From: a virus
Length of the DNA stretch: 36,893 bases
IMG/VR virus record: IMGVR_UViG_3300045988_007631
Strand: one strand, 5' to 3'
Under the pieces are notes generated by a model that was not told the origin of the DNA, did no database searches, and saw only the letters and a program-made list of their open reading frames with translations. The stretch's first letter is position 1. Each line of letters starts with the position of its first letter. This document shows, one piece after another, positions 3,697-14,634 of this stretch. The translations under genes were made by a program, and so were the position numbers.

Positions 3697-3720
3697 AGTT
3701 TGTTACCTCCTTGTGACTAT

Positions 3721-3749
3721 ATAATATCGCAGCAATATCGCGTTGTCAA
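3721..3749 (-). promoter_or_regulatory. Leftward sigma-70-type promoter for the repressor
   Basis: On minus: TTGACA (plus 3744-3749), 17-nt spacer, TATTAT (plus 3721-3726). Confidence 0.6.
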
Positions 3750-3791
3750 TATTTTTTGCAAAAACGGGCTTGACAAATATCGCATTGCGAT
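3723..3791. promoter_or_regulatory. Candidate operators of the genetic switch
   Basis: AATATCGC at 3723-3730, 3734-3741 and 3776-3783. The third sits in the perfect palindrome ATCGCA-T-TGCGAT (3779-3791), inside the rightward promoter spacer. Confidence 0.5.
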
Positions 3792-3798
3792 GTAATAT
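3770..3798 (+). promoter_or_regulatory. Rightward early promoter
   Basis: TTGACA 3770-3775, 17-nt spacer, TAATAT 3793-3798 (TATAAT also at 3796-3801). Confidence 0.65.
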
Positions 3799-3842
3799 AA
3801 TCACACCGAGAGCAATTTGCAACACATCGAGAGGTGAGAACA

Positions 3843-5789: not shown

Positions 5790-5847
5790 AAAAATAAAAA
5801 AATTCCCACCAGCGCAAACGGCATGGGACGCCGTTTGCACCAGTGGG
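5790..5847 (-). terminator. Intrinsic terminator for the antisense gene 5858..6109
   Basis: GCAAACGGC (5814-5822) pairs with GCCGTTTGC (5830-5838), plus outer CCCAC/GTGGG (5805-5809 / 5843-5847). The A-tract 5790-5802 gives a U-run on the minus strand. Confidence 0.65.
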
Positions 5848-6913: not shown

Positions 6914-7101
6914 GGTTTGTGTGTGACGCCTGCCAGGATATCACCAACATCGAGGCTGACCGGATGGAAATCCAGGGCGAGAAGCTGATGGTGTACAGCC
7001 GCGGGCGGCTGGTGTACGTGGCGGATCTGGGGCAGATCATGCTGGCGAAGCTGACGCCGGGGAGAGAGGACGGCAATGGACTTAGAACAAGCCGCGATTG
7101 A
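6910..7101 (+). CDS. Hypothetical protein
   Basis: 63 aa, ATGA overlap with the previous stop. Overlaps the next gene by 26 nt. Confidence 0.5.
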   Translation: MRFVCDACQDITNIEADRMEIQGEKLMVYSRGRLVYVADLGQIMLAKLTPGREDGNGLRTSRD

Positions 7102-7951
7102 GCGGCTGAAAATGGCCTCGGATATGAGCCTGCGCTTGTACAAGCAGCCACTTGTGATTACGTACTCCGGTGGCAAGGACTCGGACGTGCTGCTGCATCT
7201 GGCGGGCGCGGCAGGAATCCCGTATGAGGCGCTGCACTCGCTGACGACAGCTGATGCGCCGGAGACCGTCTATCATGTGCGGGAAACATTCCGAAGGCTG
7301 GAGCTGGCGGGCGTACCGTGCGATATCGATAAGCACAAGCAGCCGGATGGGACGTACATGACCATGTGGCGACTAATCCCGCTGAAGCTGGTGCCGCCGA
7401 CACGCATTATGCGCTACTGCTGCGCGGCGCTCAAAGAGACCAGCGGACGTGGCAGGTGGATCGCGACCGGCGTCCGCTGGGAGGAATCGCAAAAGCGCAA
7501 ATCCCGTGGCGTTATGGAGGCCCTGCACAGGGATAAATCCAAGCGGCTGACACTGATGAACGACAATGACGAAAGCCGGATGCTGATAGAAAATTGCCAG
7601 CTCAAGGGGACCCGAACGGTCAATCCGATTATCGATTGGCCGACCGAATCCATCTGGGATTACTGCGCAGCAGAAAAGATCTGTATGAATCCGCTTTACG
7701 CCTGCGGCGAAGATCGCGTGGGCTGCATCAATTGCCCGATGGCGGGCAAGCACCGGAAGGTGCAGCTCGCGCGCTACCCCGGATACCGGGATGCCTACAT
7801 CCGGGCTTATGGCCGGATGATCGAGGAGCGCCGCAGCCGCGGCCTGCCGTGCGATTGGCAGACCGGCGAAGACGTCCTGCACTGGAGTCTGGAGGACGGC
7901 GTTTTGCCTGGACAAATGGTTCTTGAAGGAATGGAGGAGGACGCGCTATGA
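7076..7951 (+). CDS. PAPS-reductase-family / PP-loop ATP pyrophosphatase-like protein
   Basis: 291 aa. PP-loop VITYSGGKDSDVLL. C-terminal Cys cluster CGEDRVGCINCP. Confidence 0.8.
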   Translation: MDLEQAAIERLKMASDMSLRLYKQPLVITYSGGKDSDVLLHLAGAAGIPYEALHSLTTADAPETVYHVRETFRRLELAGVPCDIDKHKQPDGTYMTMWRLIPLKLVPPTRIMRYCCAALKETSGRGRWIATGVRWEESQKRKSRGVMEALHRDKSKRLTLMNDNDESRMLIENCQLKGTRTVNPIIDWPTESIWDYCAAEKICMNPLYACGEDRVGCINCPMAGKHRKVQLARYPGYRDAYIRAYGRMIEERRSRGLPCDWQTGEDVLHWSLEDGVLPGQMVLEGMEEDAL

Positions 7952-8799
7952 TCGCCCGCGTATTCCCGCGTAAAACGGCCATGTCGCCGACGGATGCGCT
8001 GGCGTTCTTCGGGCAACCAACCATCGAGAATATCGCCGATTGCATCAAAGCGGGCGTGATAGAGGTACATATCTCCGTAACGTTTACGTGGGATTTCGAA
8101 AAGGCCGAAGATCTGTACTACGCATGGCAGATCCTCGGCGTGCCGGTTGAGGTCGGCGGCCCGGCGTTTGATGATCGCATGGGAGACTTTACGCCTGGGC
8201 TGTATCTGCGGGACGGAATGATCCTCACCTCGCGCGGTTGCACAAAGGATTGCTGGTTCTGCTCCGTGCCGCGCTGCGCGCACGGGGAAATCAAAGAGCT
8301 GCCGATCGTGGATGGATGGAACATCCTTGATGACAATATTCTGGGAACGTCAGAAGCACATTTTCGGGCAGTCTGTGACATGCTCAAGCGGCAGAAGCAC
8401 CCGGCAGTATTCTCAGGCGGACTGGAACCGGCGCTGCTCCAGCAGTGGCAAGCGGATCTTCTGTATGAAGCAAAACCGGCGCGCCTATACACGGCATATG
8501 ACACAAAGGACGATCTGGAACCTCTGATCGAGATGGGAAATAAGCTGCGGACGGCAGGATTTCGCCCAGCGAGCCACACCATGTGCTGCTATGTGCTGTG
8601 CGGCTACGACGGAGATAGCTTTGAGGATGCTGAAAAGCGCCTGACGCAGACCATGCAAGCGGGATTTGTGCCGTATGCCATGCTGTTTCGCGGAGAGGAC
8701 GGAAAGTACGATTCTGAATGGCGGAGATTCCAACGCGAATGGTGCCGCCCGATTATCACTGGGAAAAAGTTCAACGAATTTTGGAAGGAGACGACATGA
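7948..8799 (+). CDS. Radical SAM protein
   Basis: 283 aa. Canonical CxxxCxxC in SRGCTKDCWFCSV. ATGA overlap with the PP-loop gene. Confidence 0.75.
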   Translation: MIARVFPRKTAMSPTDALAFFGQPTIENIADCIKAGVIEVHISVTFTWDFEKAEDLYYAWQILGVPVEVGGPAFDDRMGDFTPGLYLRDGMILTSRGCTKDCWFCSVPRCAHGEIKELPIVDGWNILDDNILGTSEAHFRAVCDMLKRQKHPAVFSGGLEPALLQQWQADLLYEAKPARLYTAYDTKDDLEPLIEMGNKLRTAGFRPASHTMCCYVLCGYDGDSFEDAEKRLTQTMQAGFVPYAMLFRGEDGKYDSEWRRFQREWCRPIITGKKFNEFWKETT

Positions 8800-10246: not shown

Positions 10247-10487
10247 GGATTACATCAGCCGCGAAGCGGCACTTATGAAACTAATGCAGGACGGGTGCAG
10301 CGCAAAAAACTTGCAATCCATCTCGGATATGCCCGCCGCCGACGTTGCGCCGGTGGTGCATGGGCGAAAAATTGAAGACGGAGACATAGGGTGTTTTTGG
10401 CTGTGCTCTCTGTGCGGCGGATGTTTGCCGTATGGTGCGAGCTACTGCCCCAACTGCGGCGCGAAGATGGACGGTGCAGCCGAATGA
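10239..10487 (+). CDS. Hypothetical zinc-ribbon protein
   Basis: 82 aa, GGAGG upstream. CSLCGG..YCPNCGAKM. Confidence 0.65.
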   Translation: MPEDYISREAALMKLMQDGCSAKNLQSISDMPAADVAPVVHGRKIEDGDIGCFWLCSLCGGCLPYGASYCPNCGAKMDGAAE

Positions 10488-10918
10488 GCGGGCTGCGGTT
10501 TGAGAGCATGGCGGACATGCCGCCGCGGATGCGGGAGCTTTATGCACGGCAGCAGATGCCGGGGGCTGCCGCGGCGCCGAAGAAGGCCTCGAAGTATCAC
10601 AGCACGCCCGCCGAGCGCGGAGAGCTGCGCTTCGACAGCCAGAAGGAGGCGCGGCGGTACGACGAGCTGATGGTGATGCTGCGGGCCGGCATTATCTCCG
10701 ATCTGCGTCTGCAACCGCAGTTCACGCTGCAGGAATCTTATGTGACAGAAACCGGAGAGCGGATCCGCGCGATCCGGTACACGGCGGACTTTTCGTACAA
10801 ATTCGGCGGCAAGCTCGTCGTCGAAGATGTGAAGTCCAAGCCGACGCGGACAAAGGAGTATCTGCGCAACCGGAAATTCATGCGGTCAAAAAATGGAATC
10901 GACGTACAGGAGATTTAA
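10484..10918 (+). CDS. DUF1064-type protein (restriction-endonuclease-like fold; putative resolvase/nuclease)
   Basis: 144 aa from ATG 10484 (ATGA overlap). KYHS..LRFDSQKEARRYDEL..LRAGIISDLRLQPQFTL..IRYTADFSY..VVEDVKS matches the DUF1064 pattern. Confidence 0.7.
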   Translation: MSGLRFESMADMPPRMRELYARQQMPGAAAAPKKASKYHSTPAERGELRFDSQKEARRYDELMVMLRAGIISDLRLQPQFTLQESYVTETGERIRAIRYTADFSYKFGGKLVVEDVKSKPTRTKEYLRNRKFMRSKNGIDVQEI

Positions 10919-10920
10919 AA

Positions 10921-11115
10921 ATGCCGGAAGAAAAAAATGAAGCCGGCCCGTGCGGGCTGGCGAAAAGCGGGACGGACTGCCGGTGGTCAAAGCTCGCACC
11001 GGAGCTTTGCAGGCGGTGCGGCTGGAACCCGGAGGAGCGGGAGCGGCGCAGAGCGCTGCCGCTGGTCAGGGGTGAAGATGGCCTTTACCACAAGGATATC
11101 CGCCAGGAGACATAG
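10921..11115 (+). CDS. Hypothetical Cys-containing protein
   Basis: 64 aa. C..C...CRRCGWNPEE. Confidence 0.55.
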   Translation: MPEEKNEAGPCGLAKSGTDCRWSKLAPELCRRCGWNPEERERRRALPLVRGEDGLYHKDIRQET

Positions 11116-11204
11116 GCAATCAGCCGGGGTACATATTTTATCGGACTTATGCCGCGGCCGCTCCGCCATGAGACGGCTGCGGGAGGATCACCACGGCCAC
11201 TGCA

Positions 11205-11244
11205 CCCGGCGCACAGGAAGTTCCCTCAAGCTCTGTGCGCCGGG
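11205..11244. repeat. Perfect 12-bp inverted repeat (hairpin, 16-nt loop)
   Basis: CCCGGCGCACAG (11205-11216) pairs with CTGTGCGCCGGG (11233-11244). Loop GAAGTTCCCTCAAGCT. Confidence 0.85.
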
Positions 11245-11450
11245 GATAAAAGGCGCGTGTGGAACGTGCGCGAGAACGGAACCAGTCAACGTTACCCCAC
11301 ACGGGGGTCTCGCATAGCCTCCGTGCATCGCTTGCCTCCTTTTTATAAGCCGCCTGACGGCAGTCAAGGGAGGCTCGCCCGGAAATGCGCAGCGTTTGAC
11401 AAGCGAGCGCGGCGCGCCGGTGCGCAGGCGGTGAAAGCCCGCCCTGCTGC

Positions 11451-11472
11451 GGGGGCCGGAATACCGGCCCCC
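11451..11472 (+). other. GC hairpin with AATA loop just upstream of an RBS
   Basis: GGGGGCCGG-AATA-CCGGCCCCC. No U-tract. Ends 6 nt before AAAGGAGA. Confidence 0.7.
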
Positions 11473-11491
11473 GGACGAAAGGAGAATGGAA

Positions 11492-11905
11492 ATGTCACAC
11501 GTAGTCGATCTGACGGGCACGGATTTTGGATATTTGCACGTTATCGGGCGGGATACCAGCAAAAAAGGAGACACGGCACACTGGATCTGTCGGTGTAAAT
11601 GCGGGACAATCTGCAGCAAGGACGGAAAATACCTCCGGAACGGGCGTACAAAAAGCTGCGGCTGCCTCCGGAAAGAACGCGCGGCCATGCTCGTCACCAA
11701 GAAGGATCCAGACAAAAAGCCAAAAGCCGAACCAAAGAAGAAAAAATTCGGCCGCGGCCCGCAGCGGGCAGGCTCCGGGATCTGTTACAACCCACTCTGC
11801 CCGACGCGCAACAACTACCGCGGCGCCTGGAGCTGCACCGAATGCCGCTTCTGCCCGGAACGCAAATTTACCCGCCAGTCGAGGCGGGAGATCATCACAA
11901 TTTGA
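11492..11905 (+). CDS. Zinc-finger protein (W.C.C.CG...SCGC N-terminal module common in phage DNA-binding/endonuclease-associated proteins)
   Basis: ATG 11492 has 6-nt spacing from GGAGA. The track start 11486 abuts the RBS. HWICRCKCG..KSCGC, Lys-rich linker, second Cys cluster. Confidence 0.65.
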   Translation: MSHVVDLTGTDFGYLHVIGRDTSKKGDTAHWICRCKCGTICSKDGKYLRNGRTKSCGCLRKERAAMLVTKKDPDKKPKAEPKKKKFGRGPQRAGSGICYNPLCPTRNNYRGAWSCTECRFCPERKFTRQSRREIITI

Positions 11906-11918
11906 AGGGAGTATCAAA

Positions 11919-12479
11919 ATGGCAGGGATCATGAAAGGAACTGGAGGCGGCGCAGGAATGACAGACACAAAAAACATCTATTGGTCTGCGATTGAGACAT
12001 TTGGCTATGATTTGCAGATTGCGGTTGCAATAGAAGAAATGGCAGAGCTGACAAAGGAGCTGTGCAAGGCGCAGCGGGTGACGTTTGCGGGCCGCGGTGG
12101 GCTTGGGGACGGACTGATTGACAACTATGACGAGATCGCCGAGGAGATCGCGGACGTGCAGATCGTACTGGATGAAATGATGTGGGCGTTCGGTGTAGCG
12201 GCAGAGGTACAGTACGCCAGAAAGCAAAAACTCGCACGGCTGGAAATGCGGATCGAGAAGGCAAGAGAGGCACGCGGGGATAATCGTGAGCATACCGCAA
12301 ATTGGGAAACGCTGGGCCAGAAAGGGAATCCATGGTATGCAAAGCTGAATGGGCCGGGGCCAGATCCCAAAGGAGCACGAGGCGCGTGGGGGCACTGCCC
12401 GAAATGCGGGGCATCAGATTGTGAATGGGACGCTGAGACAGACGTATGCACATGCAAGGCATGCGGATACACGAACTGA
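11919..12479 (+). CDS. MazG-like nucleotide pyrophosphohydrolase with C-terminal zinc ribbon
   Basis: 186 aa from ATG 11919 (AAGGGAG upstream; the track ORF from 11526 is an out-of-context extension). IAVAIEEMAELTKEL and EEIADVQIVLDEM; HCPKCG..CTCKACG. Confidence 0.65.
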   Translation: MAGIMKGTGGGAGMTDTKNIYWSAIETFGYDLQIAVAIEEMAELTKELCKAQRVTFAGRGGLGDGLIDNYDEIAEEIADVQIVLDEMMWAFGVAAEVQYARKQKLARLEMRIEKAREARGDNREHTANWETLGQKGNPWYAKLNGPGPDPKGARGAWGHCPKCGASDCEWDAETDVCTCKACGYTN

Positions 12480-12550
12480 CCGTTGAAACTGTGGCCGGAA
12501 TTTCCGGCCACGCTTTGAGCGGGCAGAAAAAAACAAAGGAGGGCTACAGC

Positions 12551-13387
12551 ATGCAATGGGAACAGGGATGCTTATTCGACGACAACCCGGAATACGATGC
12601 GTTCACGGAGAAATTCAAACAAAAAAAGACAACGGACGACTGCTACACGCCACCGCTTGTTTATGATGCGATCCGGGATTGGGCGTGCAGTGAATATGGG
12701 ATTGATCCGGCCTGCATCGTGCGGCCATTCTATCCGGGTGGGGATTATGAGCGTTTTGACTATCCGGACGGCTGCGTCGTGCTGGACAACCCGCCTTTTT
12801 CGATTCTTTCAAAAATCTGCGAATTCTACATAGACAGAGGGATTGCGTTCTTTCTTTTTGCGCCATCGCTCACGGTGTTCTCCGGCCGATCAGTTGTGAT
12901 GAGGATGAACCATATCATTTGCGATGCAGGCATCACGTATGAAAACGGCGCAGTCGTTCACACGGCGTTTGTAACAAGTTTCGGAGGAAACATCGCGCAG
13001 AGCGCTCCATCACTCGGAAGGGCAGTCGAGCGGGCAATGCAGCAGATAAAGTCGCAGACGAAACGGAAGTTGCCGAAATATACATATCCGGACCATGTGC
13101 TGACGGCAGCCATGCTGCAGAAATATGCGCACTACGGTGTAGAATTTGCGGTTAAGCGCGAGGACTGCACGTGCGTTACCAAACTAGATAGTCAGCGCGA
13201 AACGGGAAAGACAATCTTTGGTTGCGGACTGCTGCTGTCAAACCGAGCTGCAGCCGAGAAAGCCGCAGCCGAGAAAGCCGCAGCCGAGAAAGCCGCAGCC
13301 GAGAAAGCCGCAGCCGAGAAAGCCGCCGCGCACGTCTGGGAGCTGTCTGAACGTGAAAAGGGCATCATTGCGAGCCTCGGGAAATAA
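12551..13387 (+). CDS. Putative DNA N6-adenine methyltransferase (DNPPF motif)
   Basis: 278 aa from ATG 12551 (AAAGGAGGG upstream). DDCYTPP, VVLDNPPFS. (AAEKA)5 linker before a short C-terminal tail. Confidence 0.55.
   Translation: MQWEQGCLFDDNPEYDAFTEKFKQKKTTDDCYTPPLVYDAIRDWACSEYGIDPACIVRPFYPGGDYERFDYPDGCVVLDNPPFSILSKICEFYIDRGIAFFLFAPSLTVFSGRSVVMRMNHIICDAGITYENGAVVHTAFVTSFGGNIAQSAPSLGRAVERAMQQIKSQTKRKLPKYTYPDHVLTAAMLQKYAHYGVEFAVKREDCTCVTKLDSQRETGKTIFGCGLLLSNRAAAEKAAAEKAAAEKAAAEKAAAEKAAAHVWELSEREKGIIASLGK
13250..13324 (+). repeat. Perfect 15-bp x5 tandem repeat inside the methyltransferase gene
   Basis: GCAGCCGAGAAAGCC five times with no mismatch. In frame, encoding AAEKA repeats. Confidence 0.9.
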
Positions 13388-13405: not shown

Positions 13406-14173
13406 ATGGTAAAGAGACACAAGCGCCGGAAGTTTTCCGGGAGGGTCTGCGAGCAGATCGTGTACACGGTGGCGGGCGGCACGGATCCGAAGACCAGCCG
13501 GCCGAAGAAGCCGCGGTTCCAGACGCGGGAAGAGCAGGACGAATTCAACCGGAAAATCTCCGAGGGGAAGCTGGAAGCGCTCGTCAATGCCAACTTCGGC
13601 CCGACCAGCCTGTATTCCACGCTGACACTCGACGCCGAGAACGAGGTACATACTGCTGCCGAAATGCGGCAGATTCGGAACAGATTCTATCGCCGCCTAC
13701 TATATAAATACCCAAACGCCAAGATCGTGATTGTCTACGGGCAGGGCAAGTCGACAAGCCGGTTCCATCTGCACATGATCTCGGACGGCATTCCGGAGGA
13801 TGAGATCGGCAGGATCTGGGGCCTCGGCAGCGTGATCGAGGTTCGGCATTTGCGGGAACACAACTATTACATGGACGAAAATGGAAACAAAGTCGACCAC
13901 GGCCGGGATTATAAGGCGCTGGCCGACTACCTGCACGGCCACTGGAAAAAGGAATTCGGAGGGCACCGGTACAAGGCCAGCCGCAGCTGCGTCCGGCCGG
14001 AGCCGGAACCTGCGACCAAGGCCGTGCGCGAGTACAGCCCCAAGCATCCGCCCGTCGCCCCGCGAGGTTATATCCTCGTCGAAGCCCGGACGACGAAGTA
14101 CGGGTATCAATATTATAAGTATGTAGTCGACCCAAGATCAGAGCACAAGCGGAACGGGAGCCGCTTAAATTAA
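13406..14173 (+). CDS. HUH-type rolling-circle replication initiator-like protein
   Basis: 255 aa. Motif order LYSTLTLD (FxTLT-like), RFHLHMISD (HUH), DYKALADYLHGHWKK (Tyr motif). Confidence 0.55.
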   Translation: MVKRHKRRKFSGRVCEQIVYTVAGGTDPKTSRPKKPRFQTREEQDEFNRKISEGKLEALVNANFGPTSLYSTLTLDAENEVHTAAEMRQIRNRFYRRLLYKYPNAKIVIVYGQGKSTSRFHLHMISDGIPEDEIGRIWGLGSVIEVRHLREHNYYMDENGNKVDHGRDYKALADYLHGHWKKEFGGHRYKASRSCVRPEPEPATKAVREYSPKHPPVAPRGYILVEARTTKYGYQYYKYVVDPRSEHKRNGSRLN

Positions 14174-14223: not shown

Positions 14224-14634
14224 GTGTCAAAGACGAGATATTGGTGGTATTGGAACGTCTGCCGCACCATCGGCGAATTCCCGAAACTGGACAGACAGGT
14301 TCGGGACATGAGCCGTCAGAAGATCACGCCGGGATATTCTGCACAGCCGGGCGGACATTCCTCCGGGCGCGCCGTCGAGGATGTCGCTGTGCGCGTTTTA
14401 TCTTCGCGGGAGTACGAGGACTATGCTGCCGTGCAAGCCGCGATCAATACCGCACAGACATGGCGGGACGGAGCTGACGTGCTGGAGGTCGTGCGCCTGC
14501 ACGCATGGATCTGGCCGAGGGAAAGCCTGGAATCCGCCGCGCGCCGGGTGCATGTCAGCCAGTCGACAGCCAAGCGTATGTACAGCCGTTTTGTATACGA
14601 AGCGGCGCGGGAGCTTGGCTATCGCAAAAATTGA
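14224..14634 (+). CDS. Putative late-gene transcriptional activator (sigma-70 region-4-like HTH)
   Basis: 136 aa, GTG start. C-terminal LESAARRVHVSQSTAKRMYSRFVYEAAREL. Lies immediately upstream of HNH/terminase, as RinA/ArpU-type regulators do. Confidence 0.45.
   Translation: MSKTRYWWYWNVCRTIGEFPKLDRQVRDMSRQKITPGYSAQPGGHSSGRAVEDVAVRVLSSREYEDYAAVQAAINTAQTWRDGADVLEVVRLHAWIWPRESLESAARRVHVSQSTAKRMYSRFVYEAARELGYRKN

Follow-up and report, generated by a model that had tools for sequence, protein, structure and literature searches.

Why should the densely packed early region of a viral genome contain several hundred nucleotides (nt) between two genes, and what might this segment encode? The stretch of DNA analyzed here, referred to throughout as the window, is the 36,893-nt sequence of IMG/VR record IMGVR_UViG_3300045988_007631. 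The segment in question lies at 11116-11485, i.e. a gap of 370 nt between an upstream open reading frame (ORF) with its stop at 11115 and a zinc-finger ORF starting at 11486. Both flanking ORFs are on the + strand, and the neighboring genes around the gap overlap or nearly abut. Comparative analysis indicates that the region is very probably a functional structured RNA. On balance, and with a little better than even confidence, we favor its interpretation as an autonomous structured non-coding RNA (ncRNA) of ~340 nt, which would constitute a + strand module of the early operon and not a leader of the zinc-finger gene. Its extent is as follows:

11116-11485, + strand: whole structured RNA element, from the base after the upstream stop codon to the Shine-Dalgarno (SD) sequence of the next gene

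Conservation of the element in gut phages

The element appears to be common to the genomes of hundreds of human-gut phages infecting Oscillospiraceae. Relatives were collected from IMG/VR, GenBank, metagenomes and metagenome-assembled genomes (MAGs) of Oscillospiraceae using blastn and nhmmer, and in all those fetched the element is full-length and occupies the same position. In total, nhmmer detects it in 146 sources including the window, corresponding to 110 distinct sequences of 300-461 nt that fall into ~12 clades. A search with the zinc-finger protein recovered 422 IMG/VR contigs encoding a relative; the best 80 of these were fetched, and all 80 have the element directly upstream, a few in a window-like form (370 nt, 92-97% identity) and the majority in a 341-nt form of ~77% identity. 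At zinc-finger homologues with 45-76% identity nhmmer still detects it in the upstream gap. Similarly, a blastn search of GenBank phages recovered two unannotated faecal phage contigs with the element, and a degenerate core pattern run on metagenome contigs found 51 loci, 41 of them with the element. Scanning one genome from each species for a sequence pattern yielded five loci on four MAG contigs (Oscillospiraceae, Clostridiales and Eubacteriales) in addition to three chance matches.

Two contigs carry two copies of the locus each, namely L043/L046 (IMGVR_UViG_3300045988_031126; 41.7 kb apart) and L085/L087 (CAKTTB010000013.1; loci are here designated by L numbers). Both have the appearance of a circularly permuted genome of ~42 kb assembled as a concatemer or in wrap-around fashion.

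Predicted fold and its comparative support

The minimum free energy (MFE) of the + strand RNA is -182.3 kcal/mol, as against -158.2 +/- 6.3 kcal/mol for dinucleotide shuffles (z = -3.82), with none of 100 shuffles folding as well; folding of the - strand is weaker (z = -2.12). Analysis of the 63 closest sequences (alignment A1) with RNAalifold gave a consensus of 87 pairs, eight of which have compensatory changes. The fold shown by these comparisons comprises a 5' domain, the hairpin H3, an H-type pseudoknot, the hairpin H6 and a 3' domain of H8, H9, H11 and H12, with the following elements:

11116-11203, + strand: Domain 1 (5' domain), with P0 (GCAA 11116-19 / UUGC-like 11200-03) and H1 (11122-29 / 11190-98) around a three-way junction
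11152-11182, + strand: hairpin H2 (11152-63 / 11170-82), apical loop with conserved GCCAU (11165-69)
11205-11244, + strand: hairpin H3, 12 bp in the window, loop containing CCUCAAG
11254-11296, + strand: H-type pseudoknot, with S1 (11254-58 / 11268-72) and S2 (11261-67, GGAACGU / 11289-93 plus 11295-96, ACGUU-A-CC)
11300-11325, + strand: hairpin H6 (11300-08 / 11317-25), then conserved GCAU (11325-28)
11348-11375, + strand: hairpin H8 (11348-55 / 11368-75), conserved loop GCAGNCAAG
11376-11424, + strand: H9 (11376-82 / 11417-24, U11421 bulged), enclosing a variable insert
11425-11447, + strand: hairpin H11 (stem 11427-31 / 11439-43), 7-nt T-loop-like loop KGNRAGN, UGAAAGC in the window
11451-11472, + strand: terminal hairpin H12, 9 bp, loop AAUA

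Compensatory changes across clades support P0/H1, H2, H3, the S1/S2 pseudoknot, H6, H8, H9, H11 and H12; comparative folding of homologues, which the first-pass annotation of this DNA had proposed as a check, thus found such changes in nine helices plus the pseudoknot. Covariation was tested separately for the 5' domain, the pseudoknot and the 3' domain, and in each of these three tests the observed score was reached by none of 500 shuffles. An unsupervised covariation scan of all column pairs was too noisy at ~12 effective sequences, and a scan for stacked runs retrieved H8, H11 and S2 only, with H8 as the top covarying helix.

In Domain 1, P0 (GCAA/UUGC) stacks on H1, and the junction holds a U-rich strand with GGAC (11135-48), H2 and the strand GGGAGGAUCA (11181-90; RRGGAUCA). 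In the test of this domain (model R1, alignment A6, 40 sequences) its 24 pairs are 92.6% paired and 10 are changed on both sides, with slid controls at 31-45%, although A6 was aligned by the Domain 1 covariance model and is thereby fitted to its structure, so that the pair counts are inflated. The covariance model found no match in five control loci from other phages, and single-sequence RNAfold recovers the same architecture in every clade. Seven of the 12 pairs of H2 are changed on both sides, and its stems are clade-specific (CCGCGGCCG/CGGCUGCGG, CCGCUGCUG/CGGCAGCGG and CGCAGGCCGCG/CGCGGUCUGCG). The two GC palindromes remarked upon in the first-pass annotation, GCGGCCGC (11154-61) and GGCGCGCC (11411-18), are indeed present, but they are merely parts of the H2 and H9 strands.

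The first of the hairpins described previously (11205-16 / 11233-44) is identical to H3; its arms match exactly over 12 bp, as an inverted repeat around a 16-nt loop. Across the relatives H3 is a hairpin of 11-14 bp with a different sequence in every clade, and three compensatory pairs are already found within A1. At L141:3990-4117 an insertion of ~125 nt forming two extra hairpins is present between H1 and H3, and the same is seen in L162, L144, L115, L136, L123 and L113; this might be a small element that was inserted, or an expansion at the periphery of the fold.

The pseudoknot was tested on an unfitted alignment (A3, plain MAFFT, 16 clade representatives), in which its 12 pairs are 95.8% paired, as compared to 25-54% in slid controls. 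S2 is paired in 100% of the cells, and two of its pairs change solely in concert (GC in 11 and AU in five; AU in 10 and GC in six), while three pairs of S1 are changed on both sides. The loop of stem 1 therefore pairs downstream with both stems compensated, as in an H-type pseudoknot. Its L3 (11273-88) is reduced to AAAA in the short-form relatives. The second hairpin of the earlier description (11257-67 / 11289-11302) is accordingly a real pairing, but it constitutes stem 2 of the pseudoknot and not a simple bulged hairpin.

Other pairings were considered for this part of the molecule. A hairpin at 11257-11275 with three tandem G-U pairs was replaced by the pseudoknot, as its loop covaries with AACGUYAYCC, and two interdigitated T-loops recognizing the tRNA elbow were dropped since the first of these 'T-loops' is the paired S2 strand. 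A second tertiary pairing, between the CCCC(A) following S2 and a GGGG in the H9 insert, is tentative only; it can be drawn in eight of 13 clade representatives (CCCC/GGGG, CCCAU/AUGGG, CCAA/UUGG), is absent in the window clade, L110, L103 and L159, and has equal cognate and non-cognate means.

H6 is found as a hairpin of 7-9 bp in every clade, with unrelated stems such as ACGGGGG/CCUCCGU, GCCGGG/CCCGGC, GCGCCG/CGGCGC and CUCCCGGG/CCCGGGGG. The H2 loop GAGAC and the H6 loop GUCUC could form a kissing contact, but this is limited to the window clade and is probably due to chance.

For the test of the 3' domain, 17 representatives were aligned with MAFFT without fitting to the structure; its 28 pairs are 89.7% paired, with nine changed on both sides. 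H8 and H9 are each 94% paired, and in each of them three pairs differ on both sides, an example from H9 being CGUCUGCG/CGCAGGCG versus CGCCCGCG/CGCGGGCG. H11 is 97.6% paired; its alignment pair 98/112 occurs as GC, GU, AU and CG, and position 5 of its loop is always A. H12, which was mis-registered by MAFFT in one clade, is an exact 10-bp inverted repeat in the window (11450-59 / 11464-73), and its loops in the main clade, GAGA, GAAA, GGGA and GGAA, are all of the GNRA type. H12 lacks a following U-tract and is therefore not an intrinsic terminator; in agreement, no terminator was called there. Two hairpins recognized earlier at 11424-47 and 11451-72 are equivalent to H11 and H12 respectively, the latter with a 9-10 bp stem and an AAUA loop. 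By contrast, the one placed at 11334-39 / 11369-74 is not conserved: it needs a window-specific A at 11371, which is C in the relatives, and the conserved helix at this site is H8. A natural variant of the element that lacks the H11 hairpin with its T-loop-like loop is seen at L117:735-1014, and is possibly a decaying copy.

Coding potential of the gap

Three reading frames cross the gap, all of them out-of-frame and GC-rich:

10937-11317, + strand: ORF crossing the gap
11149-11598, + strand: ORF crossing the gap
11188-11715, - strand: ORF crossing the gap

These ORFs of 126-175 amino acids, and stop-free stretches of up to 123 codons in the window, raise the alternative that one or more small protein-coding genes are hidden in the region and were overlooked by the ORF scan or the gene callers. 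However, no frame on either strand is open throughout across the clades, and the longest stop-free frame shifts in both frame and strand from clade to clade. Variable alignment columns are distributed over the three codon positions as 48/40/35, i.e. codon periodicity is absent, and the lengths of the element differ by non-multiples of three (370, 341, 317 nt etc.). Moreover, in independent assemblies no gene was called in the gap, and the substitutions are paired across stems. The relatives thus display neither a conserved frame nor codon-periodic substitution, and we assign next to no probability to a hidden gene. The proposal of a 370-nt non-coding island is in this respect upheld, with none of the three crossing ORFs being conserved, and a search of the relatives for a conserved protein-coding gene at this position found none, the stems being conserved instead.

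RNA versus DNA as the functional form

The paired columns of A1 contain 552 G-U cells as against only seven A-C cells. This asymmetry implies that the complementary strand is unable to form the stems, which excludes a duplex cruciform as well as a function of the - strand. Together with the restriction of H12 loop variation to GNRA, the presence of a pseudoknot with an A-rich L3 and the T-loop-like loop, it points to an RNA read from the + strand. Of the options raised in the first-pass annotation, that of a structured phage ncRNA therefore fares best, given the conservation of the element, the compensation in nine helices and the pseudoknot, the excess of G-U over A-C and the GNRA loop variation.

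The same observations bear on a further option, that the locus is a DNA replication origin, either, as the first-pass annotation had it, a double-strand origin nicked by the Rep-like protein encoded at 13406-14173, or a single-strand origin in the displaced + strand. The setting has some appeal for such a role: the segment is a hairpin-rich non-coding island among replication genes, and the Rep-like protein, 1.9 kb downstream, matches phrog_3584 ('replication initiation protein') as well as, weakly, a Pfam rolling-circle Rep family. Furthermore, the Ff-phage intergenic region provides a precedent for strand-specific hairpins. Yet the Pfam match is below the cut-off (20.6 < 27.8), and the distance between Rep and the element varies from 1.0 to 6.9 kb between clades, in which the gene order also shifts. 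The element, with ~62% GC, has no iterons and no AT-rich stretch for unwinding, and the GC-skew analysis suggested for origin mapping showed no cumulative inflection at 11.1 kb. A rolling-circle double-strand origin, for which one would expect a hairpin usable in duplex DNA with a conserved nick site, a Rep gene within reach and often iterons, is thus not supported, and the 552 to seven ratio excludes a cruciform or double-strand origin. A + strand single-strand origin, i.e. a folded ssDNA recognized by RNA polymerase and bearing conserved RSB and CS-6 motifs, would be compatible with the strand specificity, but the covarying pseudoknot, GNRA-restricted loops and T-loop-like loop, along with a tRNA gene adjacent to the element in one clade (see below), count against it and make it unlikely. 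Overall, we regard an origin of either type as highly improbable.

Genomic context and the question of a cis-acting leader

The element is flanked in the window by the following genes:

10391-10918, + strand: DUF1064 (PD-(D/E)XK nuclease-like) gene (Pfam PF06356, E = 5.7e-20; phrog_190)
10921-11115, + strand: small Cys-rich ORF of 64 amino acids with the motif C..CGWN.EE.ERRR..PL...EDGL, located between the DUF1064 gene and the element in most clades
11486-11905, + strand: zinc-finger ORF of 139 amino acids with a partial match to 'HNH endonuclease' phrog_374, a downstream neighbor not present in all clades

In tblastn searches the DUF1064 gene ends 5-230 nt upstream of the element in 35 of 35 representative loci, including a rearranged clade. 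In the latter (L154/L116) the PAPS reductase gene and other genes that are upstream in the window lie downstream, while DUF1064, the small ORF and the RNA remain together. Neither Pfam nor PHROG contains a match to the small Cys-rich ORF, and searches did not detect it in L103 or in the L109/L130/L114 clade, where DUF1064 ends 5 nt before the element. The downstream neighbors are in contrast diverse: the zinc-finger/HNH-associated ORF is found in the window, L099, L103 and L109, a Zn-ribbon ORF in L124 and an unrelated 118-amino-acid ORF in L155 and L131, and in L058-type loci an extra gene of 110 amino acids is inserted precisely behind the AAGGAGA, which is retained. The most divergent clade differs again: a tRNA-Met gene (anticodon CAT, encoded CCA end) lies 4 nt past the element on the same strand, before the next ORF (L103:1648-1723, L104:1517-1592). 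These contexts show the element as an independent module, always with DUF1064 upstream, usually with the small Cys-rich ORF too, and with an interchangeable downstream gene. Because DUF1064 is constant upstream while the downstream gene varies, we read it as an ncRNA module and not as a leader.

This reading also bears on the suggestion of the first-pass annotation that the segment is a long regulatory leader of the zinc-finger gene, which is not borne out in that form: the downstream gene varies, and the extra gene (L058 type) or tRNA-Met (L103/L104) may intervene, such that no single class of gene consistently follows across clades, as would be usual for a riboswitch or leader. A more general version of this idea deserves separate consideration, in which the element would act in cis, as a leader or as a translational gate between cistrons, analogous to a riboswitch, based on the following two strands:

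11335-11341, + strand: CCUCCUU, invariant single-stranded and anti-SD-like; CCUC is invariant in A3
11479-11484, + strand: AAGGAG, SD of ORF 11486-11905, at the 3' edge of the element

In such a gate CCUCCUU would pair with the next SD and thereby close the 3' domain, until a ligand, a protein, a tRNA or ribosomes that terminate upstream and unfold P0/H1 move CCUCC onto GGAGGA (11182-87) and thereby free the ribosome-binding site. The invariance of CCUC(C) in all clades is consistent with this, as is the prediction of the CCUCCUU:AAGGAG helix in the MFE structure, the centroid and the RNAalifold consensus. In most clades this duplex has ~-9 kcal/mol, and CCUCCUU is equally able to pair with the GGAGG at 11183-87 in a competing duplex of similar strength. 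L131 alters all three strands jointly, a + strand gene always directly follows the element, and P0/H1 either adjoins or overlaps the stop codon of the upstream ORF. Nevertheless, neither pairing of CCUCC shows covariation, with cognate and non-cognate duplexes being equally stable (-8.9 versus -9.0 with the SD and -7.5 versus -7.6 with GGAGG), and CCUCC is by definition complementary to any SD. Of an expression platform, the sequestering helix is predicted, but cognate pairing is not favored and a terminator is absent. The AAGGAG is kept at the 3' edge even where an inserted gene with its own SD comes after it. A gate would further have to regulate a gene that changes from clade to clade, and to act across a tRNA (L103/L104), a gene (L058 type) or two extra hairpins (L154 type) located between the element and the next SD. 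At 340 nt it would be 2-3 times the size of known aptamers, and no riboswitch or T-box model matched it, even at E <= 10 for the window element and E <= 5 for six relatives. We accordingly consider a cis-acting gate the main rival reading, though a less likely one; masking of the following SD by CCUCC is possible as a generic secondary effect.

At the site equivalent to 11335-11345 in L116/L160-type loci, CCUCC lies within a perfect 10-nt palindrome, CUCCUAGGAG, which could mediate RNA dimerization.

Several points weigh against the interpretation as an autonomous ncRNA. The linkage to DUF1064 could be mere synteny inside one phage lineage, and more distant DUF1064 phages lack the element; its effective diversity amounts to an estimated ~12 clades, from one group of related phages. 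Several conserved strands are without an identified partner in the fold, and to this has to be added the above-mentioned fitting of the Domain 1 alignment. That the RNA is freed from the transcript and acts in trans is an inference on our part, and a cis translational role is plausible, given the + strand gene downstream and the modeled CCUCC:SD pairing.

In the distant DUF1064 phages from GenBank (39-46% identity) the gap is missing along with the element. The gene following DUF1064 encodes, in two of these, a late transcriptional activator (phrog_36/248; L163:2322-2843, L164:2319-2855) of the same family as the window ORF 14224-14634, which is situated 3.1 kb further on. The RNA, together with the zinc-finger, MazG-like, methyltransferase-like and Rep genes, therefore looks like an accessory block inserted in a variable slot between DUF1064 and the late activator, to judge from gene order.

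Comparison with known RNA families

Rfam 15 comprises 4227 models, including those of riboswitches, T-box, RNase P, tmRNA, group I and II introns, ribozymes, GOLLD, ROOL, HEARO, raiA and OLE. The covariance-model scan (Rfam/Infernal) recommended at the outset did not assign the element to any of these families: at gathering thresholds the whole window has no match, and permissive searches of 10900-11700 recovered only four chance-level matches with E of 1.1-8.5 (CRISPR-DR4, Twister-sister, Guanidine-III and STnc420). On six divergent relatives only the tRNA of L104 scored, and ARAGORN found no tRNA or tmRNA in the window. Likenesses noticed by eye to RNase P (GUGGAACG, GGUGAAAGYCC, AGCCGG/CCGGCU), to a cobalamin riboswitch (GGUGAAAG) and to a tRNA T-arm were likewise without a model match. 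Candidate structured RNAs of gut microbes and phages have been catalogued on a large scale (PMC8040213, PMC10690425); judged against Rfam 15 and not against the listings of these catalogues, the element is a putative new RNA family within a known general kind.

Some general resemblances are nonetheless evident. Like GOLLD and ROOL, which often adjoin tRNA genes, the element is phage-borne, multi-helix, pseudoknotted and conserved as RNA, and tRNA-Met abuts it in L103/L104. However, it does not match their models, is ~340 nt as opposed to ~580-800 nt, and is located in an early operon downstream of DUF1064. HEARO, the omega-RNA of IscB, and the IS605-orfB (TnpB) RNAs are comparable in that the element is also an RNA of ~300 nt tied to a nuclease-family gene, often followed by an HNH-associated zinc-finger ORF. 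It differs from them in the lack of a model match, in that its adjacent proteins of ~125-190 amino acids have no RuvC or HNH catalytic modules, and in showing neither transposon ends nor evidence of a guide segment; its link with DUF1064 is positional. In the case of translational riboswitches and T-boxes, the CCUCC, the downstream SD and the competing GGAGG are set out as in an expression platform, but an aptamer match, a conserved regulated gene and a covarying sequestering helix are all absent.

The EAR RNA of the Bacillus eps operons and the put RNA of phage HK022 are structured, pseudoknot-containing intercistronic RNAs that act on the transcription complex. The element is similarly a structured and pseudoknotted RNA between the genes of a long operon, although the former are only 65-120 nt, with put being just after its promoter, and share no sequence similarity with it, and the analysis detected no + strand terminator further downstream for which read-through would be required. 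With the Ff intergenic region and the single-strand origins of rolling-circle plasmids it shares the form of a non-coding island with serial strand-specific hairpins near a Rep-type gene; unlike these it has a pseudoknot, a GNRA loop family and a tRNA neighbor, and belongs to a tailed-phage genome of 37-42 kb in which the distance to Rep is variable.

Transcription, processing and potential functions

Strong back-to-back near-consensus promoters of the sigma-70-like type are found at 3720-3800 (TTGACA-17-TATTAT on the - strand and TTGACA-17-TAATAT on the + strand). These probably represent the lysis/lysogeny switch, and with it the beginning of the early operon in which the element is located. 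At 10.5-12.0 kb neither a promoter nor a terminator was called, and between 3.8 kb and the element there are just two marginal promoter-like matches and two weak matches to a hairpin with a T-run, approximately the density in shuffled sequence. The element would therefore lie ~7.3 kb into a long rightward early transcript. We propose that it is read from the + strand within this operon starting near the 3.8 kb promoters, and that the RNA is probably cut out of the polycistronic transcript, starting at the upstream stop codon and ending ahead of the following SD or tRNA. In L103/L104, processing of the abutting tRNA by RNase P would set the 3' end of the element. The RNA might then act via its compact tertiary fold and the invariant exposed motifs GCCAU, CCUCAAG, CCUCC and GCAGACAAG on a protein partner or on the translation machinery.

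A location within an operon of ~7 kb, far from any promoter or terminator, would also suit a self-processing or processing-directing RNA, i.e. a ribozyme or an RNase entry site. This would cut the early transcript where the replication/recombination genes give way to the accessory/late-proximal genes, and thus set different stabilities for its two halves. The ornate pseudoknotted fold with invariant unpaired nucleotides and, in one clade, a tRNA with its RNase P/Z signal directly abutting the element could be seen in the same light. On the other hand, there is no match to self-cleaving ribozyme, RNase P or intron models, no conserved candidate cleavage site was identified, and simple processing sites do not need 340 nt. 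Such a role is in our estimate decidedly improbable.

For the ncRNA acting in trans, two more specific functions can be envisaged. It could be a subunit of a phage ribonucleoprotein with the DUF1064 and small Cys-rich proteins, as an RNA-scaffolded or RNA-directed nuclease, an idea that we consider improbable. The upstream position of DUF1064 in 35/35 loci accords with it, but DUF1064 phages at 39-46% identity are without the RNA, and no literature was found linking DUF1064 to an RNA. Alternatively, the strands GGAUCACC...ACCUCCUU may mimic the 3' end of 16S rRNA and titrate SDs, or a factor or toxin recognizing the anti-SD, and thereby reprogram translation in the course of infection.

Two strands of the element, GGAUCACC (11181-11190) and (G/A)CCUCCUU (11333-11342), resemble the 16S rRNA 3' end (GGAUCACCUCCUUA), which could be either chance in a GC-rich sequence or mimicry.

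To our knowledge, large complex pseudoknotted RNAs are rare, and each one that is understood, such as RNase P, riboswitches, omega-RNAs and the multimeric ROOL and GOLLD, has revealed new biochemistry. The present element is abundant in phages of the Oscillospiraceae, a dominant but poorly tractable group of the gut, and lies beside a nuclease-like gene at what is a fixed boundary between modules of the early operon. Its role could lie in anti-defence, translational takeover, early-to-late timing or a ribonucleoprotein, and would inform on the control of infection by temperate gut phages. With ~340 nt and a covariation-supported structure it is compact enough for probing or cryo-EM, and a covariance model of it would improve the annotation of gut viromes.

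Other features of the window

Elsewhere in the window, PAPS-reductase-like and radical-SAM-like genes are adjacent at 7076-8799 and possibly form a DNA or nucleotide modification module. The methyltransferase-like ORF 12446-13387 (NPPF motif, phrog_21498) contains near its C-terminus a five-fold tandem AAAEK repeat with a 15-nt unit (13240-13330). Finally, long terminator-like hairpins are present at 117-158 (18-bp, bidirectional) and at 5805-5847 (20-bp, with a T-run on the - strand).

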